Below are positions 25,807 through 43,760 of a stretch of 64,000 nt of DNA, in pieces. The position numbers were made by a program, and so were the translations under genes. Each line of letters starts with the position of its first letter. Within the stretch, counting starts at the first letter, position 1. The DNA is from Candidatus Saccharimonadota bacterium (GTDB lineage Bacteria; Patescibacteriota; Saccharimonadia; UBA4664). The stretch spans positions 156,287-220,286 of the forward strand of contig JACAFG010000005.1 in assembly GCA_019352195.1 (NCBI GenBank). The letters are read 5' to 3'. The notes under the pieces are model-generated. The model was not told the DNA's origin. It saw nothing but the letters and a program-made list of their open reading frames with translations, and searched no databases.

Positions 25807-25823
25807 GCAATGATCAAACTAAA

Positions 25824-25853
25824 ATAACGCCTTTGTTAAGGCGTTATTTTAGT
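25824..25853 (+). terminator. hairpin + T-run after tRNA-Leu (ATAACGCCtttgttaaGGCGTTATTTT)
   Basis: 8-bp stem; same hairpin recurs at ~29050 and ~34640. Confidence 0.65.
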
Positions 25854-26020
25854 TCTGTAAAAGGTGGGTGCCACTGCGTATATCGGAAAGTCATTATTCG
25901 AATCAAGTGTAGTAATTTTACAAGCTAAGCTTGCACTTGCATTAAGTGGATTAAATTCGGTAAAAGTTATATAATATTCAACGTCCATTCGTTGTTTGAC
26001 ATCGGTGTAGCAGAAATGAG

Positions 26021-28150
26021 TTGATTTATGTGTATCAGCCATACCCATACCAGGTCCCGGTTTTACATGCCATCGACTTAGCCCGTAAGTCGGGCAAAAG
26101 AAGTGCTCTCGTTGTCTTGGCCTCTGGTCTTGGCAAAACGGTAGTAGCAGGATTTGATATTCGTCGCTTCATGAGCAGCCACCCTGGGGCAAAGGTCTTG
26201 TACCTGTGCCACCAGAACTAAATACTGCGGCAGGCTCGTAGGGAACTAGAGGAGAATATCCTGCCTAACAAGTACAATCATGGGTTCATGATTGGCGACG
26301 ATCGGGCGATCCATGGCGTCGATTTGTTGTATGCGTCATTCCAAACGATGCATCGCCATCGTCGACGTTTTCGGTCCGATGAGTTTGACTACGTTGTAGT
26401 CGACGAAAGTCACCACGGTCCAGCGCCCACGTATCTTCCGACACTGGAATACTTCACCCCGAAGTTTCTGTTGGCTATCACCGCTACTCCAGACCGTATG
26501 GATCAGCAAGATATTGGTGAAATTTTTGGCGATCCGATCTTCAGGATCGAGCTAGAAGACGCTTGGGCACGCGGTTTGCTCGCGCCAGTTGATTACCGTG
26601 TAATGACCGACGAATGGCAAAATTTGGAGGTACTCGACACGCCAATTGGGAAACTGAGCATAAAACAGCTCAATAAGACCATTTTTGCGACCAAGCGTGA
26701 TGAAGAGATTGTCCGCATCATTGAGGGCAGGATCATGCACCTCTTTGAGCCGCGGGTAATGATTTTCTGCCCGCGTATTAGTCATGCCGAGCACATTGCT
26801 GACCTCATGGAAGGCGCGACCGCTATTCACTCCATGCTTACGAGCACCGAGCAAGAAGATCGGCTAAACGGTTTTCGTGATGGTAAGTACCGTGTCGTCA
26901 GCACCGTCGACATGTTTAACGAGGGCATTAATGTTCCAGAAGCGAATGTCATCGTGTTCCTACGCTCAACGGCTTCGCGTACGATTTTTTTCCAGCAACT
27001 GGGCCGTGGGCTCCGCAAGAGCAAAACAAAGAAACATGTCCTGGTTCTTGATTTTGTAGCGAACTGTGACCGTTTGCTTATACTCGATGAACTCAGGGGC
27101 GGCGTTAACGAGCGGCTCACCAAGCTGCGCTCAAGGACGCCCGGAGGCGATACACCAATCGTGATCGACTCAGGGGATTTTATATTCGACGAGGCCGTAC
27201 GTGACGTACTTAAGATACTCGCATCGATCAGGGGTAGGTACTCGAACGAGGAGCTGATAGAGATTTTCCGAGCCAAGGCGCTAGAGCTTGGGCGCAATCC
27301 GACCGGTGATGATGTCGACGCCGATCCGGCGTTGCCAAGTAGGGCGCTGTACTATAAGCGATTCGGTAATTGGAGCAAACTGCTGCGACTCGTAGATCTA
27401 GACGCGGCCTTCTTCAGGTCTGATGATCGTCTGATTCATGAACTCAAGAAACTAGCGGACCAACTGGAAAGAGCGCCCTCGACCAAGGACGTTAAGGATA
27501 CACATTGGATGGCGGCACCAAAGACTTACTACCAGCGATTTGGCAAGAGTTGGTCTGAGGTTCTCGCTAAAATCGGTCTTACTCCTGCTAGAAAATTCCT
27601 CTCCGACAAGGAGCTGCTCGATAAGTTGCGAGCCAAGTATCAAAGTTGGACTGAGCAATTTCTTACCATGGCGAATATAGATGCCGATTCGGAGATGGCT
27701 CATTCTTCGACATACAGGGAGAGGTTTGGCTCGCTAGATAGCGCGTTATTGCGAGCGGGTGTCACGGAAGATATTCAAGTTCAACACCAAAAAGCGGTGC
27801 TGACAAAGCGTCTGAAAGAGCTTGGAGACCGACTCGGCCGTACACCTGGGCGTCGAGACGTCGATAAAGCCTCAGATATGGCGGACAGCAGCACTTATCG
27901 GAAGCTGTTCGGAAGTTGGAACAGTGCACTAGGTACCGCTGGATATCCGCAAATTCGGGTGCGTCGGACCCCAGAGATGATGCTTGCGGACCTCCGAATG
28001 CTCGTCGATAAATACGGTAAGTTGTCGCAACCTATCATCAATTCCGAATCAGGAGTTGCTTCATCATCCACGTATGCATTGAAGTTCGGCTCAATAGCGA
28101 ACGCTGCTAGGCTTGCGGGAGTTGAACCGAATAACTCTCGTATCAAATAA
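26021..28150 (+). pseudogene. DEAD/DEAH (SF2, res-subunit-like) helicase fused to 5 tandem ~50-aa HEAR-like repeats; interrupted by in-frame TAA at 26219-26221
   Basis: ORFs 26021-26221 and 26288-28150 are in the same frame; Q-motif PYPYQ, Walker A ASGLGKT, then stop, then DESHH (motif II), helicase C-domain; C-terminal repeats ..LGRxP..S.TY..RFGSW..AL..AG. Confidence 0.7.
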
Positions 28151-28304
28151 TTTCCGGTCATGTGTTAGCATGACGTAATTCTTGATGACCACATCGAGAA
28201 AGCCGGTACGATAACCCGGTGCAGTCACTAAATGTTATTTAGTCTGATGAGTCTGAAAAGACGAAACTGCAAATCACCCGCTACTTTTTGGCGAGTACTA
28301 TTTT

Positions 28305-28353
28305 AGTTCGAACGTCGTTGACGGTGGTGTACCAAAGAACTTATGCTCATACG
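28305..28353 (+). repeat. island repeat copy C (AGTTCGAACGTCGTTGACGGTGGTGTACCAAAGAACTTATGCTCATA)
   Basis: member of GTTCGAAC..GGTGGTGTACCA..ACTTATGCT family. Confidence 0.8.
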
Positions 28354-28369
28354 AGAGTCTCTCCACAAA

Positions 28370-28630
28370 CTAGTAGTGGTAACGACAGGCAAATATTCGA
28401 ATTTCTTCATTTATCACTGTGTAAACGAGACGATGCTCATCTGTTATTCTTCTAGACCAAGATCCAGCCAAGTCTTCGCGTAAAGGCTCAGGCTTGCCTA
28501 GGCCTTCAAATGGGCTCCGCTGGCAGTCTCTAACTAGTTGATTTATCTTCTTGAGAATTTTTTTGTACTGAGATTGCCAATAGACGTAATCATCCCAACC
28601 GTCTGGAGTAAAACTAATTTGTCTGCTCAT
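28370..28630 (-). CDS. yoeB: YoeB/Txe-family toxin
   Basis: WDDYVYWQ..PFEGLGKPEPL..WSRRITDEHRLVY..ACRYHY near-canonical YoeB. Confidence 0.9.
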   Translation of the reverse strand: MSRQISFTPDGWDDYVYWQSQYKKILKKINQLVRDCQRSPFEGLGKPEPLREDLAGSWSRRITDEHRLVYTVINEEIRIFACRYHY

Positions 28631-28881
28631 TATTCAGAAATAGCGTGAGATGATACATTCCCGCTCGCTGCGTCGGCAAACCCGCGACGCAAACGCTTGG
28701 CATTATTTTTATTTCCAAGCAAATAGTCAGTTTCTACTTTTGAGTTGTATTGCTCGAGCGGCATAGCGACGATCGTGCTGCCATCAGTACGAGTAATTAG
28801 TAAAACATCCTGATCGTCAATCACCTGATCAAAGTACTTCTTTGAATCTTTGCGAAAATTAGAAATGGTAGTTACTTTCAT
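28630..28881 (-). CDS. yefM: YefM/Phd-family antitoxin
   Basis: Phd/YefM N-terminal fold (TTISNFRKDSKKYFDQV..LLITR); 1-nt overlap with yoeB. Confidence 0.85.
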   Translation of the reverse strand: MKVTTISNFRKDSKKYFDQVIDDQDVLLITRTDGSTIVAMPLEQYNSKVETDYLLGNKNNAKRLRRGFADAASGNVSSHAISE

Positions 28882-29004
28882 GGTTGTCTCCTTGTATGTT
28901 AAATTGTACGCTAAAACGTACGTTAATACAATGAATTTAGCACGGTTCGTAAATTATGGGCTCTCAGTATAAAAGCCTACCCATTCTTTTCGAACCAATA
29001 GTTT

Positions 29005-29083
29005 GGTTCGAACGTCTAGCACGGCGGTGTACAGCGCAGATCGAACTAAAATAACGACTTTGTGTGAAGGCGTTATTTTAGTT
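29005..29083 (+). repeat. island repeat copy D plus copy of tRNA-Leu 3' flank hairpin
   Basis: GGTTCGAACGTCTAGCACGGCGGTGTACAGC..GATCGAACTAAAATAACGACTTTGTGTGAAGGCGTTATTTTAGTT. Confidence 0.8.
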
Positions 29084-29302
29084 TTTGGAATAGTGGGTAC
29101 CAACCAATACCTTGTAGTTCCAAAACGGAAAGAGCCCCCGGCTGCGGAGGATTTCCTATGCTGGAGGCTATAAGTCGAAGGCCAGTTGTGGGTCTTGATT
29201 GCCACGGCTAATCTCCGTGACATATTTGGGTAATTCCTTGCTCGTCGGATAGTAATGCTGACGGCAGGCACAGCGTGATTCACCCAACCACGACTCATAG
29301 CA

Positions 29303-29848
29303 TTAGTGAGTTTTGCTTAACGGTTTGCCGCATTGAAGACAGAGCACACGACCTTCGTAGCGAAATATGGTTGGTAGATCACCGGCGGCCGCTTTTTGTA
29401 GCAGAACATCGTCAACATCAACACCAAAGTAAGTAGCGATTTTTTCTGGCTGAAAGAAAACAAGATTTTGCAGCCAGGTTTTTGGTAAGAATAGCTCTCT
29501 GACGATTGAATTGACGAACGCTTCTAGGAGCCAGTACTGCCTAGAGGAATATACATCCTTTATTCCAAAACTCTTAATGAGGTACCAGTGAACGATCTCA
29601 TGGACAACCGAGAAGCGAAACTCGTTTTGACTAGAGTCGCTTTTTACCTTCACCACATAACCTTGGCCGCTATGAAATAGCGCTGCAGGTCCAGCTAAAT
29701 CTGACGAAATAGTAAGTCCGAGGCCTAACAATTCACACATGTGGATCGGGTCGAGAATAAATCCTTGGTCTCGGCGCAATACTTTCGAACGAGAAAGAGC
29801 GTCCAAATGTGTCGCCGAGCCATAAGCTAACACCTCTTCTCTTGCCAC
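29303..29848 (-). CDS. ImmA/IrrE-family zinc metallopeptidase (DUF955) with C-terminal zinc ribbon
   Basis: HEIVHWYL (HExxH) motif; C-terminal CLQCGKP..; no partner HTH gene seen. Confidence 0.65.
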   Translation of the reverse strand: MAREEVLAYGSATHLDALSRSKVLRRDQGFILDPIHMCELLGLGLTISSDLAGPAALFHSGQGYVVKVKSDSSQNEFRFSVVHEIVHWYLIKSFGIKDVYSSRQYWLLEAFVNSIVRELFLPKTWLQNLVFFQPEKIATYFGVDVDDVLLQKAAAGDLPTIFRYEGRVLCLQCGKPLSKTH

Positions 29849-29980
29849 TTTAGCCTCCTGTACCGTTTGGTTTTTAAGGGACGTGGTTACGTAATCAGTT
29901 TATTGAGCGCGGACGAATCTATCTAGTCAACAATTCTTGCCTTAATTTGCTTTTAGTAAAATCTCGTTGCGCCTAAGTAC

Positions 29981-30030
29981 AGTTCGAACATCCCCCACGG
30001 TGGTGTACCATTTGGATCGAACTCGACATA
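29981..30030 (+). repeat. island repeat copy E
   Basis: AGTTCGAACATCCCCCACGGTGGTGTACCATTTGGATCGAACTCGAC. Confidence 0.8.
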
Positions 30031-30421
30031 GCGAAGCTAAAGATAGTAGGCTGATTTGATGATGGTTAAGTAAACTGCGATAGAGCGCTTTTGCTTAATC
30101 AAGTTTTCATTTGCATTAGTATTGGATCGATCGAGCAGATTCATGCAATCGCCCCTAGCTATTCGCAGAAAGTATCACCATACTGATGAGCACGCTAGTA
30201 TAAGGTTCTACTCAATGAAGCGCCGGGATCACAAGTACCGCAACGAATCGGGTAAAATCACGGTATAATTCTTGGTTATGCCTACCATCATTCTGAACTT
30301 GCTGCTGACACTGCTTTTGAATTCCATACTTCATCATCGATTCTATAGCAATCTCAGGATTAGTTGCCCTATCAATGCACGTTAGGCATGGCGCATAGTA
30401 ACAACCTTATGAGGAGCTTTC

Positions 30422-30958
30422 ATGACCGAATTACCACCCGAGATAAATAGTTTTGTCGCTGATACTCGCGAAGACTTAATTGTAAATGCCATCGAAATAT
30501 TTGACACTATCAAGCAGTCACTGCTCGTGCTAGATAAAAATCTTACAGTCGTACTGGCTAATGCTTCGTTTTACCGAAACTTTCAATTTACCAAAAAGGA
30601 AACTGAAGGTACCCGTATTTATGATGTCGGCAACGGACAATGGCAAAGTGCTCGGCTCAAATCATTGCTCGAAAAAATTATTCCAGAACAAAAAGAAGTG
30701 AACGACTACGAGCTTGTACATACATTTGATCACGTTGGCGAGCGGGCAATGCTGCTGAATGCGCGAGAAATTATTCGTCAAGACAATCGCCAAGAAGTTA
30801 TTTTGCTGGCCATCGAGGATATAACAAATAAGAAGTTTATGGAGCAGCAGACAAAGGATGCCGAATCGCGCATCAACAAGATTCTCGAGAATTTGGTTGG
30901 GTCCTCCGAACGATACACGGGTGGGACAGGTTCCCCATTGGCCAAGCCGCTGAAATGA
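30422..30958 (+). CDS. stand-alone PAS-domain protein
   Basis: PAS fold pattern (..LVLDKNLTVVLANASFYRNF..); no output domain; translationally coupled to next gene. Confidence 0.6.
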   Translation: MTELPPEINSFVADTREDLIVNAIEIFDTIKQSLLVLDKNLTVVLANASFYRNFQFTKKETEGTRIYDVGNGQWQSARLKSLLEKIIPEQKEVNDYELVHTFDHVGERAMLLNAREIIRQDNRQEVILLAIEDITNKKFMEQQTKDAESRINKILENLVGSSERYTGGTGSPLAKPLK

Positions 30959-31332
30959 CCGACCGACGTTCTTCAAACGCGGTTTATATGCGCGAAGATC
31001 TATTGTGGATCGAGGTGGTGGGCGATCAAAACGGTGAAACAATTCGCGCTATGGGAGAGCTTATTGACGCGCAGATTACTATCTTGCGTAGGGCTCATAA
31101 GCCCGTATTAGTACTTGATGACCTAACGCGTATCGGCAATGCCAATACCGATGCCCTGAAAGGTGTGGCCATTTTAGCTCGGATGCTCGACTATGATCTC
31201 GCCGCCATGCTCGACAAAAAATCGGCGCTGATGCGCGGAGGCACTAACCTCCTGCTCACATCCATTGGGAGAGCCGATGCGCGTTATTTTTCTGACCGAG
31301 ATAAAGCTATGAATTGTCTTCGCAACGGATAA
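30955..31332 (+). CDS. STAS-like (anti-sigma-antagonist fold?) small protein
   Basis: 4-nt overlap with PAS gene; weak STAS-like pattern (VLVLDDLTRIGNANTDALKGVAILARML). Confidence 0.35.
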   Translation: MTDRRSSNAVYMREDLLWIEVVGDQNGETIRAMGELIDAQITILRRAHKPVLVLDDLTRIGNANTDALKGVAILARMLDYDLAAMLDKKSALMRGGTNLLLTSIGRADARYFSDRDKAMNCLRNG

Positions 31333-31391
31333 TTTCAGTATTTTGCGCTAAACATAAGAGGCACTCGAGAGAGTGCCTCTTATGTTTAGAA

Positions 31392-31580
31392 ATTGGTCGG
31401 GGCGGGACTGGTCATGGAAGACGTCGCGGCGGTGTGGCTTACTAACTAACAAAGCAACGGGCTCAAACGACGGACTTAACTAAATCAGACTCTATTTGAA
31501 CCGGACATTCTTAACTCGATGTGCCACATCTAGGAGCTAATTTATATCCTCCTGTGTTCCGAAATTAATATATCAAATTA
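31392..31580 (+). repeat. ~190-bp repeat, copy 1 (GGTCGGGGCGGGACTGG...CTAGGAGCTAATTTAT..CCTCC...TATCAAAT)
   Basis: ~85% identical to 37666-37850; directly preceded by hairpin 31357-31380. Confidence 0.8.
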
Positions 31581-31647
31581 ATTTATTGTGAATCAAGTAT
31601 TTATATACAGTCAGGCGGTGGCTAATTTATACTCGATGTGGCTTGCG

Positions 31648-31695
31648 CATTTCGGGCGTCGCCCACGGTGGTGTACCAATGTTCTTATGCTTATA
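31648..31695 (+). repeat. island repeat copy F
   Basis: CATTTCGGGCGTCGCCCACGGTGGTGTACCAATGTTCTTATGCTTATA. Confidence 0.8.
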
Positions 31696-31820
31696 ACGGC
31701 CTATCAAGGGCGCTATTTGCGTATTAAGCTTCTATAATGAACAACAGTGGACATTTGAAGCGAGCTATTGAGCTAGTAGTCCAATACTGAGCGGACTCAC
31801 TATAAGCGCCGAATTAAAAA

Positions 31821-31849
31821 AGTGCCCTCATGGTTGAGGGTACTTTTTT
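31821..31849. terminator. bidirectional terminator hairpin
   Basis: AAAAAAGTGCCCTCatggttGAGGGTACTTTTTT. Confidence 0.7.
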
Positions 31850-31856
31850 ATTGTTT

Positions 31857-32039
31857 TTAGCTTGTTCTCGGATGACCATGAGCGGCGTATTCGTCGAGTA
31901 GCTCTTTCTGCTCGATGTTTGAGTGAGCAGCAGCCGTTTCGATAAGGCGCTTCTGATCCTTCGCCTTTAACTCGTAGAAATGATTGTCGGTCTTGGGGGG
32001 AGAGAAAAGTTTAGAAAGTTTGCGTAGAATGCGTGTCAT
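31857..32039 (-). CDS. small protein downstream of zeta-like kinase (possible cognate partner)
   Basis: 60-aa ORF overlapping zeta-like gene by 4 nt. Confidence 0.4.
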   Translation of the reverse strand: MTRILRKLSKLFSPPKTDNHFYELKAKDQKRLIETAAAHSNIEQKELLDEYAAHGHPRTS

Positions 32040-32737: not shown

Positions 32738-32778
32738 GTTCTGATAATATCAGTTTTTACATGCGCCACTTGAATCCT

Positions 32779-32826
32779 AGTTCGAACGTCGCCCACGGTG
32801 GTGTACCATTAAACTTATGCTTCGAA
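32779..32826 (+). repeat. island repeat copy G (near-consensus)
   Basis: AGTTCGAACGTCGCCCACGGTGGTGTACCATTAAACTTATGCTTCGAA. Confidence 0.85.
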
Positions 32827-33412
32827 TGCTGTACTTAGTTGTCAGTGTTAAAACGCACTAATGAATTCTCCTCGTACTCGTCTCACGCTAATTATGTTTA
32901 TTCTAGTGGCAGTTGTACTTGGTCGGTTGGCTACTCAAATTGCCAACTACTCCATCTATCGAATACAACCTGGTGCCTCGTCCTGCCAAAGAATTTCTGG
33001 GCCTAGCCTATGCCCTATCCTTGAGTCGTCATCGAGAAATTACGGATAGCCGATAGTTACAAGTACTGTTCTAATCAAACCTAAAATTTCGGATGGGGCA
33101 TACCAATTTTCGGAGGAGGCCTTTGAACGCTCCCCGGCCTTACGGCCAGCTTTCTCTCCGTATATTAATGCCTTTGAAGACGACTGGATATTATGGAGCG
33201 TCTTTTTTCTCTTAGCCTTAATAGTTATGCGGTCTCATCAAAAAAAACCGTCGCTCGCTTTAATGTAGTCTTCTTATTTGGTGCATTGCACAATATTAGC
33301 AGCGTGCCGTAGCGGTGACCGTAATAGCTTATACAAACCCTCAAGTGGCGAAATATAGAGCTTATTTTCACAGTCTCCCATGGAAGTCTATTTCTTTTGA
33401 TATTATTAGGTC

Positions 33413-33808
33413 ATGAATACTCTCGTAAAGCGGCTTCGGGACGGGCAGGATCTCATGTTAGAGATAACTAAACTCGTCGGGGAAAATCACGTACAGGCAG
33501 GTATCATCCTGTCGGCTGTAGGCAGTCTAAAAGAATCAAATATACGCGTACCTATTATCGACGGCGCCGTGAAATACATTAATCCGACTAATTTAGAGAT
33601 CGACAACTTGCATGGAACGGTGTCGGTAAATGGCTGCCACCTTCATATTTCTGTGTCTGATATCGACGGTAAAGTTATGGGCGGCCATTTAAAAACCGGT
33701 TGCATTGTTCGAACAACATGCGAGCTGGTGATTGGAGTATTGGACGATCATTCATTCCGACGAGAGCCCGATTCCGATACTGGTTACGATGAGCTGGCGG
33801 TCACTTGA
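33413..33808 (+). CDS. DUF296 / PPC-domain protein
   Basis: ..GIILSAVGSLKESNIR..GHLHISVSD.. pattern typical of PPC/DUF296. Confidence 0.55.
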   Translation: MNTLVKRLRDGQDLMLEITKLVGENHVQAGIILSAVGSLKESNIRVPIIDGAVKYINPTNLEIDNLHGTVSVNGCHLHISVSDIDGKVMGGHLKTGCIVRTTCELVIGVLDDHSFRREPDSDTGYDELAVT

Positions 33809-34002
33809 TTCGCTGCTGACGAGGTTACATCGCATTTCGAACGTCTTTTACGATGGTTTTCCAGCAGCCATCGAACCAAAACAGCGCATTTCTAGTGTCT
33901 TTCTCTTGTGCATTCAAAAATAAACTTGTTTAGATTGAGGGAGTTAGTTGTCGGAGCTTTAACCTTGACCGCGACTAACTGTGTAGCTATAATGTAATTA
34001 CT

Positions 34003-34553: not shown

Positions 34554-34586
34554 ACGTAGTGGTCGAGTATCTTGAAGTTGAATTGC

Positions 34587-34662
34587 AGTTCGAACGTCGC
34601 CCACCGTGGTGTACCAGCAATAATCAAACTATGATAACGCCTTTATTAAGGCGTTATCTTTG
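34587..34662 (+). repeat. island repeat copy H plus second copy of tRNA-Leu 3' flank
   Basis: AGTTCGAACGTCGCCCACCGTGGTGTACCA + GCAATAATCAAACTATGATAACGCCTTTATTAAGGCGTTAT (compare 25807-25850). Confidence 0.85.
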
Positions 34663-34749
34663 TATATATCGCTTTGGGTCCCAAGTATTATTCAAAACTT
34701 TTTTTAACGGAAAGAGCCCCCAGGCGCGGAGGATTTACGGGCTTGAGGG

Positions 34750-35355
34750 CTAAGCGGTTAGTTTGATGGGATCAGCAACTTTGTGGCGCTGATATCCAGG
34801 ATGCCAGAGCCGGACCACAGCCTGAACGACTGCGAGCTGGCTGCCGGGAATGAACATGAGCGATGCCCTCGTGAGCAATCGCACCTTGCGTTCCTGCGAG
34901 GCGTAATTTGCCTCTTCGTCGCAGGACAATGGGAAGGCGTATTCGCTCGTGGTTGTGGTGATGTTGAACCCGCGCCCTAGTATTTTGCGGCCCAAGAACA
35001 GAATACGTGGTTCAGCGTGGCGGATCGTCACAAAAATTACATCTGCGACCTTGATACCGTTACGTGCCATTACGTGCTTGGCGCAAGTCATATTGCTGAT
35101 GTTATCTCGGGATTGATCCTCGAAGAGGATGTGGTCTGCTGGTACTCCCAAGTCAATCATGATGGCGCGCATTTCGGCGGCTTCGGTGAATTCGTTCTGA
35201 TTAGTGTCAAGGACACTCCAGCGTCCGCACGCCGTAACATAATCGACTTTGCCCGACAGCCACAACGCGGCAGCTTTGCGGGCAATCGATTTCGTGCCTT
35301 CAGCGCCCGGTCCACGACCAAAGGCAATGGCAATAGTTGTCAATCGAAACACCAT
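34750..35355 (-). CDS. DUF218 / YdcF-ElyC-SanA family protein
   Basis: YdcF-like Rossmann-like core; family assignment by overall pattern. Confidence 0.5.
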   Translation of the reverse strand: MVFRLTTIAIAFGRGPGAEGTKSIARKAAALWLSGKVDYVTACGRWSVLDTNQNEFTEAAEMRAIMIDLGVPADHILFEDQSRDNISNMTCAKHVMARNGIKVADVIFVTIRHAEPRILFLGRKILGRGFNITTTTSEYAFPLSCDEEANYASQERKVRLLTRASLMFIPGSQLAVVQAVVRLWHPGYQRHKVADPIKLTA

Positions 35356-35439
35356 CCTCAGTTAGGGCGGATAGAGTAGTATATAGTAACATTAATTTAA
35401 CTATAGTGCAACATTATTGCGTTGTAATAATCGTATCGA

Positions 35440-35471
35440 AGTTCGAACGTCGCTTACGGTGGTGTACCATT
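35440..35471 (+). repeat. island repeat copy I
   Basis: AGTTCGAACGTCGCTTACGGTGGTGTACCATTG. Confidence 0.8.
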
Positions 35472-35549
35472 GTGTACAAAGTAAATAGTTACGACGTCTT
35501 GACGTCATAACGTTATTAGATCATACTCAAAGTATATAAGGAGACCCAT

Positions 35550-35780: not shown

Positions 35781-35785
35781 CCCCG

Positions 35786-36037: not shown

Positions 36038-36063
36038 CATTAACTCATCGTTATTTTGATCGC

Positions 36064-36110
36064 AGTTCGAACGTGGGTGACGGTGGTGTACCAATGAACT
36101 TATGTTTGTA
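36064..36110 (+). repeat. island repeat copy J
   Basis: AGTTCGAACGTGGGTGACGGTGGTGTACCAATGAACTTATGTTTGTA. Confidence 0.8.
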
Positions 36111-36160
36111 TTTACAACTAAGAGCCTCGGACGCGCCGAGATCTCTCAGTCGTCCAAGGC

Positions 36161-36697
36161 TCATTTCAGGGGCTTTCGCCAAACGCTACCGTCATATTCC
36201 CCTTCGGCATCATTGAAGTATCTTTCGGCAATGCCAACTGGTCTACCATACAGCCTCCGCCAGAATGGCCAGCCACTCCACCGAAAGCGGGGCCCGCTGA
36301 CGAGAACTATCTCGGTGTGCCCATCAGCACGGGCTTTGTTTTCCATGTGGGCGACAAGTGCACGGCCAATGCCTGTTCGGCGTGTGAGAACGTATGCGTC
36401 AGTGAGCTCGATTGGGTTTTCGCTGCGAGCAAAGCCGCGGATAATTTTGTCGGGTGGTTTGAGCGTCATCACGCCCAATAGCACCTGGCTTCCAGGTTGT
36501 TTTGCAACGACGCAATATCCTTGTGAGGGTTGGTTGCGATAGCTCAGTATAGCCGCCAATACCTCGGTAATCTCGTCCATGGCAACTTCGTCAGTGGGCG
36601 GATTGCGAATGGCGCTGATAAGTACCGGCAGCAAACTCTCCCTGGGGTTGTGAATCGTGAATAGGTCGCAAATTTCGATGTCACTGGTCATGTTCAT
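36161..36697 (-). CDS. GNAT-family N-acetyltransferase
   Basis: acetyl-CoA site RRTGIGRALVAHMENKA. Confidence 0.6.
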   Translation of the reverse strand: MNMTSDIEICDLFTIHNPRESLLPVLISAIRNPPTDEVAMDEITEVLAAILSYRNQPSQGYCVVAKQPGSQVLLGVMTLKPPDKIIRGFARSENPIELTDAYVLTRRTGIGRALVAHMENKARADGHTEIVLVSGPRFRWSGWPFWRRLYGRPVGIAERYFNDAEGEYDGSVWRKPLK

Positions 36698-36962
36698 CTC
36701 CGCCGGAGAAGGAATGGGTTGCTAGATATAACAGCTTTGGCTGTCGGCATTACCATAGCTTCTTTCCCGTAATACATCAAGTCTTGGTAAGTACGTAAGG
36801 ATGCCGCTTGCGGGGTTCTTACTTTGCTCCACCACTTTGCAAATTGGTTCGACTGTCCTGGATGGTGGTAAACCAGTACTAATGAACTTAAATATCGTCG
36901 TTGTTAGCGTATTTAGGGTGTGATATAGCCAGGTAGCTGGTCGGAATTGTTGGTAGGGTGAG

Positions 36963-37529: not shown

Positions 37530-37665
37530 GGGTTCAGTATATCTGAGCCACGACGCTAAGTAATAGCTTGGCTTTTTCTGTGTCATTCGAACATGCTCCC
37601 ATGACTCATTGACTATGACGTAAAACGCAAAAGCAGAGACGCTCGTTAGAGCCTCTCTGCTTTTG

Positions 37666-37850
37666 ATTGGTCGGGGCCGGACTTGGACTGGAAGACGTCG
37701 CGGCGGTGTGGCCGACTAACTAACAACGAAGCGGACAAAACTTACTACTACTTAGTAACGCGGACTGAACGGGACATTCTTAACTTGATGGGCCACATCT
37801 AGGAGCTAATTTATGTCCTCCTGTGTCTTCCGTAGTTAATATATCAAATC
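37666..37850 (+). repeat. ~190-bp repeat, copy 2
   Basis: preceded by hairpin AAAAGCAGAGAc..TCTCTGCTTTTG at 37628-37664. Confidence 0.8.
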
Positions 37851-37997
37851 TCGGAAACGAAGATCAAGAGTTTTTTTGGGTTAAATTATTTTACGCGGCC
37901 GGCTTGCCAGTTAGAATTTTCAATTCGCGAAGCTGCGGCGCCAAATACTGACCGGGTTTTTTGACACCCCTCCATTTGCATCGGGGTTTGGTATACT

Positions 37998-38612
37998 TTG
38001 CCCATGATTAAGGCAATTACTTTCGATTTGGACGGCGTGTACTTCCCTAGCGGCAAGGCTAATTTCATAAAAGCTGTCGTTTCGCTTGGTGTAGCAGAAG
38101 ACGAGGTGAAGCGGGTTTTTCTTAAGAGTTTTGAAATGAATGAGCGTTACAAAATAGGCGTCATGACTGATGATGAGTTTTGGACTTGGGCGGCGGAGCA
38201 ATGGCAGTTAGACATGGCTCCAAAGCAGCTGATCGAACTATTAGGCGACAGCTATGAGGTAGATCCGAAGGTCGTAGAAGTCGTGAGAATGGCGCGTCGC
38301 AGTGGTTATAAGACACTGGTTTGCTCCAATAATTTTCCCGCGCGCGTCAATGAGTTGCAGCGTAAGTTTGCGTTTCTCGATAACTTTGATGCGGCGGTAT
38401 TCTCTTATGAAATTGGTGCCGTGAAGCCGTCTGAGGCCATCTTCCAGGAGCTGGTCAAGCGATCGGGTGTTATGGCCGAAGAAATTGCATTTGCTGATGA
38501 TGATGCGGAAAAAATATCCGGAGCGGTGGCTATCGGGATGACCGCTTTCGTATACGATGGTTTTGAACCGTTTATTGATCACCTCAATTCACTAGGAGTG
38601 AAATTAGCGTGA
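37998..38612 (+). CDS. HAD-superfamily hydrolase
   Basis: motif I ITFDLDGV; capped HAD length. Confidence 0.7.
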   Translation: MPMIKAITFDLDGVYFPSGKANFIKAVVSLGVAEDEVKRVFLKSFEMNERYKIGVMTDDEFWTWAAEQWQLDMAPKQLIELLGDSYEVDPKVVEVVRMARRSGYKTLVCSNNFPARVNELQRKFAFLDNFDAAVFSYEIGAVKPSEAIFQELVKRSGVMAEEIAFADDDAEKISGAVAIGMTAFVYDGFEPFIDHLNSLGVKLA

Positions 38613-39091
38613 TCATCAAAAGTCATGCTCCCGAAAACTACGATTGCCCTATTTGCTTGGGCCTACTAGGCAGTGCTAGTCAAAAGACGTTGATAAAAGC
38701 ATCAGATTTTGTCTATCGAGATGAGCTGGTGAGCGCGTTTATAAACACGTTTTTCATTGGCAAGAATGGCGGGCATGTAATCGTCGTGCCAAACGAGCAC
38801 TTCGAAAATATCTACACATTACCCGTCGCTCATGGCCATCGTATTTTTGATGTGGCCCAAATGATTGCCTTAGCAATGAAAGCAGCCTATGACTGCGACG
38901 GCATTACCACGCGCAACAATAACGAGCCTGCTGGTGACCAGCACGCATTTCATTATCATTTTCACGTTTTTCCGAGATATGTGGACGACGACTATAACTC
39001 AGTGTCACCGGCCGAAAAACGACTAACAGAGCCTGCTGAACGGGCCGGATATGCCGCTAAAATTAAAGCCGCGCTTGCAGCAGGAGAATAG
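38609..39091 (+). CDS. HIT-family (histidine triad) protein
   Basis: HYHFHVFPR triad; 4-nt overlap with HAD gene. Confidence 0.65.
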   Translation: MIIKSHAPENYDCPICLGLLGSASQKTLIKASDFVYRDELVSAFINTFFIGKNGGHVIVVPNEHFENIYTLPVAHGHRIFDVAQMIALAMKAAYDCDGITTRNNNEPAGDQHAFHYHFHVFPRYVDDDYNSVSPAEKRLTEPAERAGYAAKIKAALAAGE

Positions 39092-39137
39092 CTAGCTGCC
39101 CCGGTGGGCTCTCGCTGCTTTGTCCCCTTCACGAACA

Positions 39138-39175
39138 CATTTCGAACTTCGCCCCCCCCGGTGACGTATCAACAG
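39138..39175 (+). repeat. degenerate island repeat copy K
   Basis: CATTTCGAACTTCGCCCCCCCCGGTGACGTATCAACA; resembles copy F 5' half. Confidence 0.5.
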
Positions 39176-39454
39176 GAATGTAACTAACGTAACGCCCTCA
39201 TGAAGGCTCTGGGTTAGGTGGCGCAATCGTGGTTACGCATTGTGCTTTGATTCGGGAAACTCCTCAGGCCATACGTATTGCTGAGGAGTTATGGGTTGTC
39301 ATATCTTAGTCAGCGAAGATGGCATCAAACGCGTGATCAGACAAGCCGAAGTGTTTTTGGTAGTAGTAGCGAGTCGAAGCCGCCATGTCGGCCCTACGCT
39401 GCTTCTAATAGCAGTCACTAAATTCATCGTCACGGTAGCTGTTATTATTAACGT

Positions 39455-40027
39455 ATGACTACGCCAAACGCCATCATTGTACATGGTATGACGAGCCGGG
39501 ATGAATATTACGATGATGCTATGCCATCAATGAGTAATAATCACTGGGTACCGTGGTTGCAGAAGCAGCTACTGATTCGGGGAATAGCGACGGCTACTCC
39601 TGAAATGCCGTTAGCATATGCGCCAGATTACGAGGTGTGGCGGCGCGAGTTTGAACGCTATGAGATTGGACCCGAGACGATTTTGGTGGGTCACAGTTGT
39701 GGGGGTGGTTTTTTAGTGCCCTGGCTGAGCGAACATCAGGACAAGCGCGTCAAACAAGTTTTGCTGGTGGCACCCTGGCTTGATCCGTTTCGAGAAGATA
39801 CTACCGACTTCTTTGAGTTTGATATCGATCCCGGCCTCGCAACGCGTTCACCGACATGGTTGTTTCATTCAGATGACGATAGCGTGGGGGTCCAGACTAG
39901 CGTCACTACGATCCGCGTGGCCCTGAAGGACATTCGCGACGTGGGATTTCATGGGTATGGTCATTTTACCTTCAACGACCTTGGGACAACGGCGTTTCCG
40001 GAATTGTTATCCACCTTACGTAGTTAG
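39455..40027 (+). CDS. alpha/beta serine hydrolase, YdeN/RBBP9 family
   Basis: nucleophile elbow VGHSCGG; family size 190 aa. Confidence 0.6.
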   Translation: MTTPNAIIVHGMTSRDEYYDDAMPSMSNNHWVPWLQKQLLIRGIATATPEMPLAYAPDYEVWRREFERYEIGPETILVGHSCGGGFLVPWLSEHQDKRVKQVLLVAPWLDPFREDTTDFFEFDIDPGLATRSPTWLFHSDDDSVGVQTSVTTIRVALKDIRDVGFHGYGHFTFNDLGTTAFPELLSTLRS

Positions 40028-40144
40028 AAAACTGGGTAGGCTACCGGGTGCTTGAACGTGAGTCATCACGATAATTCCCCAATGGCACGGCGTATTTGGT
40101 AATAGCTAGATTTTTGACCGCGGGATTTTTTCATCTGGTAACGG

Positions 40145-41371
40145 TTACTTAGCGACGGGTTGGTTAAGGGTTAAGTAAAAGAAGTCTTTGTTATATCCGT
40201 GCAGATAAGCATAGCCACCATTTGCAAGCGTGTTTAATATGCTCTGATAGGAGTAGCTGCCATTACCGAGCGGCTGAAACGTGACGTACCGAACCCAGAA
40301 AGCGTTTATATCCAGTTGAATTGCTTCGGTAGCGCCCCCGGCTTTAAGGGCGCTTGCTAGGGTTGCTGCCGTGAGCGACGGGCCAACGGCGTAAATAAGA
40401 TTACCGTTAGGGGTTAATCCGACACCCGAGCGCCAGGTATAAATCGAGTTGGTCGTAGTTCTGCCCCAGACAGCATAACCTCCTGAGATAGCGTCAGACG
40501 TAACCGTGCCATTATCTAAGATCAGCGGTCCATTTTGTCGTATGGCCTCGATTGGCTTGGTTGATGATGCTGGCGTCTGGTATCTGTTAATCATCAGGCT
40601 GCCATCTTTGTAAATGGTCAGGGTGCCCAGGCCAGTTTGAAGCGGAACATAGGTCGTTGGTCCAACTACCATGCCGTAGTGGCCGTCTTTATATTGAAAA
40701 CCGCCGTTAAAGCCCGCGACGAGCTCATTGCTGGCAATATCTGAGGCCGGAATAAGCCCAGGTCCGGGATGGCCAAGAATTGCACCCGGGTGTTCGGTAC
40801 CGGCCACAGAATGCAGATGCAGCTGATGCGCGTTCATTTGCACAAGCGCAACGATGGCGTAGCTTCGTGCCGAGTCTGGCCTGACAAATGTCTTCGCCAT
40901 GAGAGACTGCCCTTTAAACTGTGGCAGTTCAACCAGACTCCAATTTCCTTCGCCGGGTAATTTGGCGAAATTCGGCTGAAAGTAATTCAAGGGCGCAAGA
41001 TTGAGGGCTTGTAGATTGGCGGTGGCGTCGACAGTTGGGCTTAAGGCTGCTGGATTTGGGAAAGTTGCTGGTTGAGATGGTCCCGTGCTGAAGATGTTGC
41101 TATTTGGTTTAGCGATAGTACCATACGCGAGCTGCTTGAGGTGGTCACTGAGCGAAAGCATCGATGCCTCGAGGGCAATCGTAGCCCGATTACCAATGGC
41201 GGGCCGAAGATAATTGTCGGCAAAGTTAGCTACCAATGATGGCTGAAACTCTATGGTGGCAAGCCCAATGAGTCCAACAGCTACCACAGCAACCATGCCG
41301 GTAAGAAGCTTGCGTAGAGTACGCTTCTTCCTGGGTCCATCTAACGTATATTTGGGTTTTGGTGAGAACAA
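40145..41371 (-). CDS. phosphodiester glycosidase-family (DUF2233/NAGPA-like) secreted protein
   Basis: N-terminal TM anchor; AGFNGGFQ and GVGLTPNGNLIYAVG regions. Confidence 0.5.
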   Translation of the reverse strand: MFSPKPKYTLDGPRKKRTLRKLLTGMVAVVAVGLIGLATIEFQPSLVANFADNYLRPAIGNRATIALEASMLSLSDHLKQLAYGTIAKPNSNIFSTGPSQPATFPNPAALSPTVDATANLQALNLAPLNYFQPNFAKLPGEGNWSLVELPQFKGQSLMAKTFVRPDSARSYAIVALVQMNAHQLHLHSVAGTEHPGAILGHPGPGLIPASDIASNELVAGFNGGFQYKDGHYGMVVGPTTYVPLQTGLGTLTIYKDGSLMINRYQTPASSTKPIEAIRQNGPLILDNGTVTSDAISGGYAVWGRTTTNSIYTWRSGVGLTPNGNLIYAVGPSLTAATLASALKAGGATEAIQLDINAFWVRYVTFQPLGNGSYSYQSILNTLANGGYAYLHGYNKDFFYLTLNQPVAK

Positions 41372-41623
41372 ACTAGCTGGATTCCGTTTCCTAGAACGTA
41401 CGCTCTATGTAATAAAATTGATAATGGCCGGGCTACGTCTATGATACCAGAGTAAGCGAACGTTGCTCGCTTTGGAAGTCGCTGACTGTCGCTCCATTGA
41501 CGGTGCTTTCACGGCTCTCTGGGTTTGCCACGGGAGCCCACGCTGCTCAAATTGTCAGTTGAGCCAGCCGCCTTCTCGGGCTTAACTCCTTGCCCAGGCT
41601 TGTCTCCGAGACGTAGACGAGCG

Positions 41624-42010
41624 CTACCGGTTGGTGGATGAGCCGGCGCGTCTTCGCAAGCTTCGCGCCATGAGTAACAGGAGAATCAGGGCGTGAATAG
41701 CAACAGCGGCTGCGATGCTGAGCAGCACGATTGTGGTGGCGCCCTGATAGTGCAGAAGGGTCAGAATGTAGCTAAATAGGACGATGCCAAGCAAGCGGAG
41801 GATAAATCCGATTCGGTTGGATCGGAGCTCACGCCAATTGATGCGCGCGACATAGACGTAGAAGATCCAAATATGGATGAGCAGGAGGGCCCCAATGTAA
41901 AGAAGCGTTGGGATGATGAGTTTGTAGTGGATGAGCGGGACCAGGACAATCGTAGTTCCAAGTAAGGTTGCGAGCTTGCCGACAAACAAGCGGGGCTGGT
42001 TGATTTGCAT
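41624..42010 (-). CDS. small polytopic membrane protein
   Basis: 4 predicted hydrophobic helices; downstream of cytochrome b gene. Confidence 0.45.
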   Translation of the reverse strand: MQINQPRLFVGKLATLLGTTIVLVPLIHYKLIIPTLLYIGALLLIHIWIFYVYVARINWRELRSNRIGFILRLLGIVLFSYILTLLHYQGATTIVLLSIAAAVAIHALILLLLMARSLRRRAGSSTNR

Positions 42011-42019
42011 CTTGCGCTG

Positions 42020-43492
42020 CTACCGCGTGGGTGGTTTGCGCCAGATGAGCTTATAGAGACCGAGTTTTTCGGGTAGGCGGTTAACGAAGGGAATGAACGG
42101 GAACGCCAGGAGCAGGAGGATAAAGGTCCCGATGATGATGGCAGCGTCACGGTCGCCGTTGTCGTCACTGGCGAGGACCGTGTGGTTCAACAATCCGATG
42201 GGGGCAAGCCACCACGCGCCCGGGGGAATGCTGCCTGATTCTTCACGAACCATGCCGTATTGGTCAGTCGTCATTTTGAGACTGGTGGCAGTGTCGTCGG
42301 GCACGCCCGTATCGGCGAGGAAGCGAGTAACATAGGTGGTCTCGTAACCGGAGCCGTTGTTGTTGCGCAGAGCTGCCTCGTACAGACCACTGCCTGCCAT
42401 CGTCGTGAGCTTATCGACCACCGCAACCACGGGGTTAGCTTTCGGGGTGGCGGGTTTTGGGTCCGCGGCGTAATAGTCGGTGGCGGCTTTGAGCTGGGCA
42501 TCTTGGATCGCGGTTGGCTCAGCGTTGAAAACGTCCATCTGATTGGTACCGACTTGGACCGCGAGGAGTTGGTGATACGGGGTTTCAATATACACTTGGC
42601 GTGAATCAAAGGTGTAAGGGTTAATGTTATCGAGATAGGTGGCAGTATCGGATGAGTGGTCGAACTCTTTGGTTAGGGTTTGCGAGATGAGGGCCGGGTC
42701 GTCGGCGGCAATTTTGCTGATGGTGAGCGGGGCGAGATAGGGCGACGGATACATATACGCGAGAGCTGCCACGGCCAGGACCACGGTGCCGCCGCGCCAC
42801 GCCAGTAAGGTGTGGTTGGCTTTAACAACTGGGTAGTTATCGGCCAGTTTGGCCGGCTTGCCGATGCCAAGCACCCGCACCAGAAAGTAATGACCCAGGA
42901 TTAAGGCGATGAGCAGGAGCGGGATTACCACCACGTGAATACCCATGACCTGGCCCGTGTTGAGGTTATTGAGAACCCAACCAATGCCGCTGCCGTTGTA
43001 GAGGTCGGCGCCTTGGAGGCTACGGTATTGGGACGAGAAGTCGCCGCGGAGCACATAGCCGAATTCAGCTTCAGCTAGGGCGAACAGGAACATGAACACC
43101 CCTAGTACCCAGGTTAGCTTGCGGCCGCCGCGGAAGCCGGAGGTGAGGAAGACGATGGTCAGGTGAAGCAATATGAACACGACGAAGGCTTGAGTGGCCC
43201 AGAGGTGGAAGCTGCGCGTATATTGGCCGACGGTACTGGTGATCCACCAGTGGGGCCCAGCTGCAGCCATAATGGTGCCAGTAACTAGCAGGAGCAAAAA
43301 CGAGACAGCCGAGAGAAAGCCGAGCGAGTAGAAGAATTTGTTGGCAAACGACGGCACGTCGCGGATCATGAGGTTTTGGAGGCCGTTGCGTATCAGTTGG
43401 AACGGGGGCTGTGATTGAGCCATTAGTGTTATCTCTTTGGCAGTGGACGAGGGGCCATCGCTTCGCCGTGTAGTGTTACTTGGCGTCATCAT
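42020..43492 (-). CDS. di-haem cytochrome b (b6-like) fused to a ~260-aa extracytoplasmic C-terminal domain
   Basis: His pairs spaced 14 and 15 residues apart in helices (SFHLW..ILLHL; GIHVVV..LGHYF), b6-type spacing; possible start at internal Met 43423. Confidence 0.55.
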   Translation of the reverse strand: MMTPSNTTRRSDGPSSTAKEITLMAQSQPPFQLIRNGLQNLMIRDVPSFANKFFYSLGFLSAVSFLLLLVTGTIMAAAGPHWWITSTVGQYTRSFHLWATQAFVVFILLHLTIVFLTSGFRGGRKLTWVLGVFMFLFALAEAEFGYVLRGDFSSQYRSLQGADLYNGSGIGWVLNNLNTGQVMGIHVVVIPLLLIALILGHYFLVRVLGIGKPAKLADNYPVVKANHTLLAWRGGTVVLAVAALAYMYPSPYLAPLTISKIAADDPALISQTLTKEFDHSSDTATYLDNINPYTFDSRQVYIETPYHQLLAVQVGTNQMDVFNAEPTAIQDAQLKAATDYYAADPKPATPKANPVVAVVDKLTTMAGSGLYEAALRNNNGSGYETTYVTRFLADTGVPDDTATSLKMTTDQYGMVREESGSIPPGAWWLAPIGLLNHTVLASDDNGDRDAAIIIGTFILLLLAFPFIPFVNRLPEKLGLYKLIWRKPPTR

Positions 43493-43711
43493 ACCACTTA
43501 TGCTTCGATTATCAGTGTGAGTTACGTCACAGTGTCCATAGATGTACCGGCACGGAGCTAGATAGAATCTATCGCCTTCATAGTTAGAGACGGCATTTTG
43601 TATCTTTAAAAAGAGTTTATGATGTCAAGATTGCAGTGCGAGGCTTGATATCGACCTGGAGTATTTACTAAATCAATTGGCCATAGGTCCGGTCCAATAG
43701 TTCATGACTAT

Positions 43712-43760
43712 GGTTCGAACGGCGCCTACGGTGGTGTACTCATGTACTTTTGAGTGTACC
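43712..43760 (+). repeat. island repeat copy L (last); partial copy at 43487-43515
   Basis: GGTTCGAACGGCGCCTACGGTGGTGTACTCATGTACTTTTGAGTGTA; 43487-43515 CATCATACCACTTATGCTTCGATTATC. Confidence 0.75.

Follow-up and report, generated by a model that had tools for sequence, protein, structure and literature searches.

A low-GC stretch in a metagenome-assembled genome (MAG) annotated as Candidatus Saccharibacteria begins at the 3' end of a tRNA-Leu(CAA) gene and is split by short, co-oriented repeats into 12 units of 0.6 to 4.6 kb. It lies within the 64-kb segment of contig JACAFG010000005.1 analysed here, hereafter the window. With about equal confidence and doubt, we read this stretch as a tandem array of about 12 small, non-autonomous cassettes that would have accreted site-specifically 3' of the tRNA gene, served by a recombinase acting in trans. 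The sites between the units have a constant two-part anatomy and a single orientation, are restricted to this locus and conserved across genera, occur in four junction types, and bound one cassette that recurs in other genomes. The GC content is 0.43 to 0.49 across 27 to 40 kb of the window and 0.53 to 0.60 in the flanks, in agreement with an earlier, sequence-only account of the region (the preliminary description), in which the array was called more AT-rich than its surroundings.

A profile hidden Markov model (HMM) was built from the repeat copies and run with nhmmer over the window. It recovered 11 strong copies (E 1e-10 to 5e-6; sites 1 to 10 and 12 in Table 1, the last starting at 43707/43708), all on the + strand, and every other match in the window had E > 1. 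The preliminary description had proposed at least 11 repeats in the same orientation, all on the + strand, and the HMM reproduces this. The copies it listed are mostly real, but it missed those at 33829 and 36841. One listed copy near 39133 is recognizable in an alignment that includes its tail, but it is very degenerate (E 1.7 with the HMM), and another near 43487, listed as partial, proves to be only a downstream tail (ACCA-CTTATGCTTCGA) without a core. The copies span 28300 to 43740, and the HMM finds none past site 12 up to the end of the window at 64 kb. A 21-nt sub-pattern allowing up to 3 mismatches matches six times in the window, against 0.01 expected by chance. The orientation of the repeats is independent of that of the genes between them, which lie on both strands.

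The core of the repeat comprises about 31 to 35 nt (GTTCGAAC-RTCGYYG-ACGGTGGTGTACCA), with A-N5-GTTCGAAC-[GA]TCG-N3-AC-N-GTGGTGTACCA as the consensus of the conserved block. It aligns with the true 3' end of tRNA-Leu(CAA), GTTCGACTCTGACCAGCGGTACCA, which serves as the first left half-site of the array, yet it is 5 nt longer. The core cannot pair with the 5' acceptor strand of the tRNA and hence cannot rebuild the acceptor stem, and a search of the window for a second copy of the true tRNA 3' end found none within 6 edits. The repeat does resemble the tRNA 3' end, as was pointed out earlier, but it appears to be a diverged look-alike and not a copy.

The complete boundary sites are directional, about 50 to 110 bp long, and consist of two halves: on the left either the tRNA 3' end or the core, and on the right one of two flank sequences, A or B. 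Class A tails have six variable bases after ACCA followed by TTATGCTTATAA, often with a small terminator next. Class B tails (N6-8-TCGAACTAA, then a long terminator hairpin) repeat as much as about 75 nt of the sequence found 3' of the tRNA in this same genome. The hairpin arms of this native flank lie within 25818-25854 and act as a bidirectional terminator; in the copy at 34633-34658 a terminator scan gives a hairpin of 11 pairs. The tail (AT)GAACTTATGCTTATA, previously described as shared by the repeats, is thus present in about half of the copies (class A), while the rest carry the tRNA flank with its terminator hairpin (class B). The A sequence stands directly 3' of the real tRNA in seven related loci (L012, L021, L023, L031, L032, L033, and L108), so that A and B are two versions of the native tRNA flank and probably two alleles of it. 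Most B tails match the flank of their own host at 42 to 48 of 50 positions. The tail of site 3 is foreign, as though acquired from another genome, and matches the flank of the related locus L014 at 35 of 50 positions versus 23 of 50 for the flank of its own genome. At class B sites (for example, window 34582-34640 and L014 6240-6295), the beginning of the tail, GATCRAACT, is the reverse complement of AGTTCGA, a motif that stands at the left edge of the core and in the T-loop of the tRNA. The whole core of such sites lies inside an inverted repeat of 7 to 8 bp, with a bottom-strand fold at z = -3.9 and a spacing of 24 nt in tRNA|B versus 29 nt in core|B junctions.

The likeness to a tRNA end suggests a functional RNA or regulatory punctuation as an alternative, in which the repeats would be tRNA-like 3' modules (substrates of RNase P/Z or the CCA enzyme), terminators, or promoters. 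Intrinsic terminators do follow many copies, the B tail is the terminator of the tRNA itself, and one copy matches TTGACG-18-TATGCT. Against this, the consensus structure of the repeat is trivial (-0.92 kcal/mol, 3 invariant pairs, no covariation), class A copies show no folding beyond that of shuffled sequence on either strand (z ~0), and ARAGORN and Rfam match only the real tRNA. The tRNA or RNase P/Z mimicry for which RNA folding had earlier been suggested as a check was rejected on these grounds. An outward promoter was rejected as well: the matching element spans core and A tail, but only 1 of 12 copies qualifies, and the total of promoter-like sites equals that of shuffled sequence. With copies placed regardless of gene orientation, this alternative is largely refuted and we regard it as very improbable.

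Related loci were reached through homologues of the sortase gene adjoining the tRNA and read as neighbourhoods of +/-10 kb; the results given here cover the window and those neighbourhoods. The search of relatives proposed in the preliminary description was productive: ten further Saccharimonadia loci have the core, in each case downstream of this tRNA-Leu. The richest is L014 (an 840-kb JGI contig whose sortase is 60% identical), which has six strong copies and a weak seventh within 10 kb. Two copies each are present in L021, L032, and L108, where the second copy (at 9531) reached only E 0.02 in a smaller search, and L012, L013, L023, L025, L030, and L033 have a single copy each. One further copy is on L007, a 1.1-kb metagenome fragment. 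A total of 29 copies at E < 0.05 was found in 1.42 Mb of non-redundant Saccharimonadia sequence; 28 of these are at loci that include the tRNA, and every one of the 28 is downstream of the tRNA gene, on the same strand. The core is almost invariant among genomes whose adjacent sortases share only 52% to 70% identity, which appears to be conservation beyond neutral expectation. Outside the sites, there is hardly any DNA or protein similarity between the islands.

The same comparison bears on whether the repeat is a generic dispersed element of the repetitive extragenic palindromic (REP) or miniature inverted-repeat transposable element (MITE) type that happens to be dense here. It is indeed short, conserved, and intergenic. 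However, neither in the window nor in the related loci (1.42 Mb) were copies found on either strand away from the region downstream of tRNA-Leu, whereas the preliminary description had named copies at random intergenic sites, irrespective of accessory genes, as the mark of a REP-like element. The repeat also lacks a palindromic hairpin, and exact-pattern scans returned no multi-copy contigs, with 0 matches in GTDB representative genomes and 0 in viral contigs. In JGI metagenomes the exact pattern gave 9 matches, of which only L007 is real; the match in L004 was rejected as a true site, lying inside a 653-amino-acid (aa) open reading frame (ORF) of an unrelated organism. Searches of phage and plasmid collections with the site (blastn) gave nothing meaningful. 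A dispersed repeat of this kind is thus highly improbable.

The position of the array beside a conserved flank is consistent across relatives. In 72 of 79 GTDB-representative loci the tRNA-Leu adjoins the same sortase gene, and the core is present in only 6 of them. The side of the tRNA opposite to the array is syntenic in all relatives (sortase-PEGA-MreB-Wzy-WecG...GluRS). Downstream of the tRNA, the content is unlike in every genome compared and differs completely between relatives.

Support for recombination at the sites comes from their junctions. All four combinations of half-sites are present across genomes: tRNA|B in the window, L013, L014, and L024; tRNA|A in the same seven loci in which A follows the real tRNA; and core|A and core|B in many copies. 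This is the pattern expected for attB, attP, attL, and attR, and it supports the earlier suggestion that the repeats are att-like and related to the tRNA-Leu 3' end. L021 has tRNA|A, 525 bp, and core|B, a classical attL...attR layout, as predicted for an element integrated into an attB of the tRNA|B type.

Evidence that the units behave as cassettes comes from the operon for a ribbon-helix-helix (RHH) antitoxin and a ParE toxin. Two cores enclose a homologous RHH-ParE unit in the window, where it is about ninth in the array, and in L108, where it is second; in L007 a core and then a different neighbour come after it. In all three the core begins 0 to 25 nt past the ParE stop codon, and the recurrence of the unit at different array positions bears out the description of the intervals as cassette-like. 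Homologous cassettes are found in L007, L108/L109, and L043, and the closest homologues have 71% to 82% protein identity. The tRNA and first (cupin) cassette of L033 and L108 are 89% to 93% identical, compared with about 70% to 73% in the flanking core genes, and the similarity stops right after the core and TTATGCTT.

Many homologues of the ParE cassette are on contigs of only 0.9 to 1.9 kb, which fits assemblies that break at repeated cassette boundaries. Likewise L002 (Logan contig SRR11551193_11315), an independent assembly that may come from the source sample, ends 166 bp past the sortase on the side of tRNA-Leu, at the place that the tRNA occupies in the window. Both observations suggest that short-read assemblies break at the repeats, and such arrays are therefore probably under-represented in MAGs.

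In the array that we propose, cassettes would enter, leave, and move by conservative site-specific recombination between att-type sites. The crossover would be at or just 3' of the GTACCA common to tRNA and core, so that the tRNA would stay intact. Units of 0.6 to 1.7 kb are too small for autonomy, and the recombinase would be encoded outside the array, act in trans, and possibly be active at present. A tRNA site that recombined with a downstream core would release a circle carrying the flank of the donor, and re-integration of such circles would account for the tRNA-flank copies scattered through the array. The four toxin-antitoxin cassettes would probably protect the array from loop-out deletion.

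No tyrosine or serine recombinase or other transposase was detected in the array or the rest of the window by Pfam searches, which covered all cassette ORFs and all ORFs of at least 200 aa, or by regular-expression motif screens for recombinases. Precomputed Pfam annotations show none in the islands of L012, L013, and L014 (L108 and L110 were also covered) or in the 10 kb beyond the left edge of the window. Phmmer and tblastn with segments of XerC, XerD, lambda Int, and Hin found no integrase fragments, although this is a weak test of limited sensitivity; the Pfam-based checks are the reliable evidence on recombinases, with coverage and method differing among loci. The arrays examined contain no phage or replication genes either. 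These searches agree with the preliminary description in placing no integrase within the window. In L108 the sole transposase-type gene is IS30-type (HTH_38 and rve), about 9 kb past the last core. L033 has an IS200/IS605 insertion at 8781-9371 (Y1_Tnp, E 6.9e-41, 591 bp) inside its first cassette and, farther out, an IS4-type DDE transposase at 1937-3046; neither explains the cassettes. The IS200/IS605 TnpA was rejected as the cassette enzyme, since it belongs to a self-contained insertion sequence with its own left and right hairpins that is absent from the otherwise 89% to 93% identical L108. An IS200/IS605-derived identity of the core was also rejected, as the core has no hairpin and the sole Y1_Tnp, that of L033, is a separate insertion.

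Without an integrase at hand, the array could instead consist of relics of serial integration, in which conventional islands with integrases (of the phage or IME kind, like tycheposons and the Dehalococcoides ssrA islands) inserted repeatedly at tRNA-Leu, lost their integration modules, and left fixed cargo, in units immobile by themselves, between decaying att scars. In location, orientation, and repeats resembling a tRNA 3' end, the array is like tandem tRNA/tmRNA islands (PMC3146451; 10.1101/2020.12.28.424599). A number of copies have degenerated, unit 1 consists of a broken restriction-like gene, and no polymorphism has been observed. Such an origin accords less well with arrays that hold no integrase gene or fragment and no phage or replication genes, and with units that are uniformly tiny and tightly packed. 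Neutral scars would also not be expected to keep the derived form of the core, 5 nt longer than the tRNA end, across genera, or to yield the same cassette-plus-core unit at different array positions. We consider the relic explanation unlikely, although it deserves real weight.

Saccharibacteria are naturally competent, which favours another explanation that dispenses with a dedicated enzyme. The duplicated tRNA 3' region and flank would then act as portable homology for RecA-dependent crossovers in cores and tails, by which DNA taken up would replace or add cassettes. No recombinase was found, the repeats with their tails (50 to 110 bp) are long enough for RecA, B tails usually match the flank of the host, as gene conversion would give, and L033 and L108 share the whole segment of tRNA and first cassette at elevated identity. 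The junctions between the true tRNA end and a tail that elsewhere follows cores, on the other hand, would need exchange within about 6 shared bases (GTACCA), which is too short for homologous recombination except where an entire segment was imported. Conservation of the 31-nt core is position-specific and has sharp limits, which resembles protein recognition, and homologous recombination alone should quickly lose an array of direct repeats. In our judgement this origin is also improbable, without being negligible.

Several points count against the site-specific array that we favour. A recombinase candidate was identified nowhere in the window or the +/-10 kb neighbourhoods, which leaves the key actor hypothetical. 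Neither excised circles nor empty sites nor cassette variation within a population were observed. Gene order is the same wherever an identical sortase (P0008, 24 contigs), zeta toxin, or ParE (P0135, 10 contigs) is shared; this population comparison is uninformative because those lineages lack cores or are represented by only one assembly. Classical dyad-symmetric arms around a short spacer are not evident in the site, and a reading of its arms as GTGGTGTACCA-N6-TTATGCTTATA is only suggestive. The core differs in sequence from the tRNA 3' end, an unusual situation for an attP/attB pair, and, with A and B probably flank alleles, part of the four-junction argument could arise by homologous exchange of segments. 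The decayed copies (33829, 36841, 39133, and 43487) fit relics equally well. In principle, repeats of 35 to 110 bp could also confuse the assembly of a MAG; an independent contig carries the same neighbourhood as the window.

Table 1. Anchor, boundary sites, and units of the tRNA-Leu(CAA) array, in positions of the window
Feature	Position	Strand	Evidence and remarks
tRNA-Leu(CAA), array anchor	25721..25806	+	ARAGORN; Rfam tRNA 55.1 bits
Native downstream flank, B tail (GCAATGATCAAACT + long hairpin + GGTGGGTGCCA)	25807..25873	+	Read directly; repeat families D4-D6; inverted repeat I1; alignment
Unit 1: ResIII/Helicase_C helicase with four HNH_repeat domains	26021..28150	+	Pfam; ORF list; PADLOC
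Site 1: core + A tail (AAGAAC TTATGCTCATA)	28300..28350	+	nhmmer E 1.6e-10; alignment
Unit 2: YoeB toxin; Phd/YefM antitoxin	28370-28630; 28630-28881	-	Pfam 1.7e-39 and 8.4e-17
Site 2: core + B tail with terminator hairpin	29000..29085	+	Tail 43/50 identical to own tRNA flank
Unit 3: 181-aa protein, weak Peptidase_M78/IrrE-like match	29303..29848	-	Pfam E 0.0073, below family cut-off
Site 3: core + B-type tail of the L014 kind (TTTGGATCGAACT)	29976..30030	+	HMM; alignment
Unit 4: PAS-domain protein (30422-30958); SpoIIAA/STAS-like protein (30955-31332)	30422..31332	+	Pfam
Site 4: core (TTTCGGGC replaces GTTCGAAC) + A tail (ATGTTC TTATGCTTATAACGG)	31644..31695	+	Pattern; HMM; alignment
Unit 5: zeta toxin; 60-aa partner	32036-32737; 31857-32039	-	Pfam Zeta_toxin 6.2e-37
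Site 5: core + A tail (TTAAAC TTATGCTTCGA)	32774..32825	+	HMM E 1.1e-10; pattern; alignment
Unit 6: PCC (DUF296) domain protein	33413..33808	+	Pfam 7.4e-25
Site 6: degenerate core + degenerate B-type tail	33829..33893	+	nhmmer E 1e-6; families D2-D5; alignment
Unit 7: MazE-like antitoxin; PemK/MazF-like toxin	34003-34239; 34221-34481	+	Pfam
Site 7: core + B tail with terminator hairpin	34582..34663	+	Tail 42/50 identical to own tRNA flank
Unit 8: DUF218 protein	34750..35355	-	Pfam 5.3e-12
Site 8: core, tail of neither class	35435..35469	+	Pattern; HMM; alignment
Unit 9: RHH antitoxin; ParE/RelE toxin	35550-35780; 35786-36037	+	Pfam
Site 9: core + A tail (ATGAAC TTATGTTTGTA), 21 nt past the ParE stop	36059..36110	+	HMM; alignment
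Unit 10: GNAT acetyltransferase, weak match	36161..36697	-	Pfam 8.7e-5
Site 10: degenerate core + A-like tail	36841..36890	+	nhmmer E 5e-6; alignment
Unit 11: GNAT; HAD hydrolase; HIT protein	36963-37586; 37998-38612; 38609-39091	-; +; +	Pfam
Site 11: very degenerate core + degenerate B-type tail	39133..39218	+	Alignments; families D4/D5; HMM E 1.7
Unit 12: serine hydrolase; NAGPA-domain protein	39455-40027; 40145-41371	+; -	Pfam
Unit 12, rest: 128-aa protein; cytochrome-b-like membrane protein	41624-42010; 42020-43492	-; -	Pfam
Tail-only remnant (...CATACCA-CTTATGCTTCGA), no core	43480..43510	+	Read directly; 12 nt identical to site 5 tail
Site 12: last core (ends GTGTACTC) + degenerate A-like tail	43707..43760	+	nhmmer E 2.2e-8; alignment

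The units include four toxin-antitoxin modules and one restriction-like fragment; the remaining cargo comprises the GNATs, the HAD and HIT genes, PAS/STAS, PCC, DUF218, a hydrolase, and the NAGPA and cytochrome b genes. The earlier account of one- or two-gene units with a toxin-antitoxin, stress, or defence flavour is broadly accurate, but this flavour applies to only about half of the units. An in-frame stop near 26219 splits the helicase of unit 1 into two ORFs (26021-26221 and 26288-28150). The helicase matches the PADLOC mREase_IV profile (5.5e-39) over positions 313-568 of 945, that is, the middle third only, and its HNH_repeat domains are of the 'homing endonuclease associated' type; it is probably a pseudogene resembling a fragment of a type IV methyl-directed restriction enzyme. 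A homologue of the unit 2 pair is directly 3' of tRNA-Leu in L037, and a homologue of the 60-aa protein of unit 5 adjoins tRNA-Leu in L030. The toxin of unit 7 has 86 aa and is shorter than the 109-position Pfam profile. Site 8 runs straight into the operator/promoter of the RHH-ParE operon. Unit 12, with 4.6 kb, has a GC content near the genome average.

Two of the ten related loci with cores, L014 and L013, add to the inventory of the islands. The first cassette after tRNA-Leu in L014 (8476-9468) is a class-I aminoacyl-tRNA synthetase (tRNA-synt_1b, Trp/Tyr type), and another unit of this locus (2397-4309) is a metal-resistance operon (Trns_repr_metal, DUF305, ArsP permease); both are unusual cargo among one-gene cassettes. 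A non-coding element of about 190 bp is present twice in the window array (31392-31578 and 37666-37849, 86% to 93% identical) and once in the L013 island (about 4890-5090). Its invariant runs are GAAGACGTCGCGGCGGTGTGGC, ACTAACTAACAA, GGGACATTCTTAAC, CCACATCTAGGAGCT...CCTCCTG, and AATATATCAAAT, and a terminator hairpin precedes both window copies. Rfam gave no match; the element could encode a small RNA or, on the minus strand, a small peptide.

At 28219-28272 (+), in the interval from the broken helicase gene to the first repeat, the window matches the type III hammerhead ribozyme (RF00008) just below threshold. The match scores 47.4 bits versus a gathering score of 48.5 (E 9e-10 in a local search) and covers the full model, including the CUGAUGAG and CGAAAC cores and the three helices. 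No hammerhead was found in L012, L014, or L108.

The variable region probably extends past the last repeat to window 43898-50800, which includes genes for a bPH protein, a Crp-family regulator, an FAD/NAD oxidoreductase, ApbE, and ferric-reductase-like and NQR/Rnf-like proteins. These genes separate the array from a PAP2...AAA_30-helicase block, which in L013 is about 5 to 9 kb from the tRNA. A second, smaller low-GC accessory patch is present at about 6568-9300, downstream of tRNA-Glu (6492-6567), with an APH-like fragment, a PemK toxin and its partner, and ParE with an RHH antitoxin. A search of this smaller toxin-antitoxin island for repeats of the tRNA-Glu 3' end was negative.

With tandem tRNA/tmRNA islands the array shares a start at the tRNA 3' end, co-orientation of all 28 copies, four att-type junctions, and variable content beside a conserved flank; a cognate integrase encoded by the units, as in such islands, was found neither in the window nor in the other array-bearing loci. 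In Dehalococcoides, ssrA islands are arranged in tandem downstream of the tmRNA gene and are bounded by exact 20-bp repeats of the ssrA end; 16 of them carry a serine-recombinase module (DsiB/DsiA), and others have been discussed as cis-mobilizable elements (PMC3146451). The likeness is close in the small genome, tandem units at a single-copy tRNA-like gene, same-orientation repeats, variable content, and some units without an integration module. The units of those islands are several kb or larger, in contrast to 0.6 to 1.7 kb here, and the present array differs further in having no recombinase and a diverged repeat, 5 nt longer, with a copy of the flank. Tycheposons of Prochlorococcus encode tyrosine or large serine recombinases and often replication genes, and their islands contain fragmented integrases (10.1101/2020.12.28.424599). 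They likewise form a tRNA-anchored hypervariable region in a streamlined genome, with partial-tRNA repeats between tandem elements and remnants, but no integrase or fragment of one was seen here. CIMEs, decayed integrative and conjugative or mobilizable elements (ICEs/IMEs), accrete in streptococci beside a functional element that supplies the integrase in cis (PMC5704250). They too are att-flanked, integrase-less units in tandem at the 3' end of a target gene, whereas here a dozen one- or two-gene units occur with no functional element in the arrays examined. Together with the Dehalococcoides islands, CIMEs provide a precedent for tandem accretion of integrase-less, att-flanked units (PMC5704250; PMC3146451). 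The array differs from these nearest cases in its tiny units, the lack of an integration module in all arrays examined, the diverged yet conserved look-alike repeat, and the duplicated tRNA flank.

Functionally, the array resembles an integron cassette array, above all that of sedentary chromosomal integrons, in which many short cassettes from a diverse pool each end in a recombination-type site next to a fixed anchor and toxin-antitoxin cassettes (there often inverted) are enriched. It nevertheless lacks each defining integron feature tested. As the preliminary description had noted, there is no adjacent intI, no attC hairpin, and no uniform gene strand. An attC-type hairpin was rejected as the identity of the repeat, given no conserved pairing and z ~0; folding is confined to class B copies and is due to the terminator hairpin of the tRNA. 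RYYYAAC/GTTRRRY cores are missing, GTTCGAAC as read from the sequence not fitting GTTRRRY, and the anchor is a tRNA rather than attI. Nor does the array follow the logic of a common promoter, with genes on both strands and an RHH-ParE cassette that carries its own operator/promoter.

Xer-dependent elements (IMEX, integrative mobile elements exploiting Xer, at dif; pdif modules of Acinetobacter plasmids) are small, integrase-less, and often of the toxin-antitoxin type, and are moved in trans by the host recombinase. Their short sites have 28 to 31 bp, with two partly inverted 11-bp arms on either side of a 6- to 8-bp spacer. The A-type junctions of the array can be written as 11-6-11, with a right arm initiated by TTATG that we take to resemble the XerD arms of dif sites. 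The arms are not inverted repeats, however, all sites are in direct orientation whereas those of pdif modules alternate, and the locus is not at a GC-skew switch. It is possible, although we lean against it, that the array represents an integron-like platform distinct from integrons, which would use the tRNA-Leu(CAA) 3' end and its flank as a docking site, pseudo-tRNA sites of about 31 nt, a chromosomal recombinase in trans (perhaps a housekeeping Xer-type one, or one not yet described) for the capture, excision, and reshuffling of one- or two-gene cassettes, and cassette exchange across genera. In full-text searches of the literature, no account of arrays like this one in Saccharibacteria came up.

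The ultra-small, episymbiotic Saccharibacteria have genomes of about 1 Mb in which few mobile elements are recognizable, and their acquisition of accessory genes is poorly understood. A tRNA cassette array would give them an integron-like route to genes for toxin-antitoxin systems, restriction, resistance, and metabolism. If the array consists only of relics of island accretion, tRNA-Leu(CAA) would still be the main hypervariable locus of this lineage. If a trans-acting recombinase exists, the array would represent a second, independent solution to the capture of single-gene cassettes and would offer a natural docking site for engineering these hard-to-manipulate bacteria.

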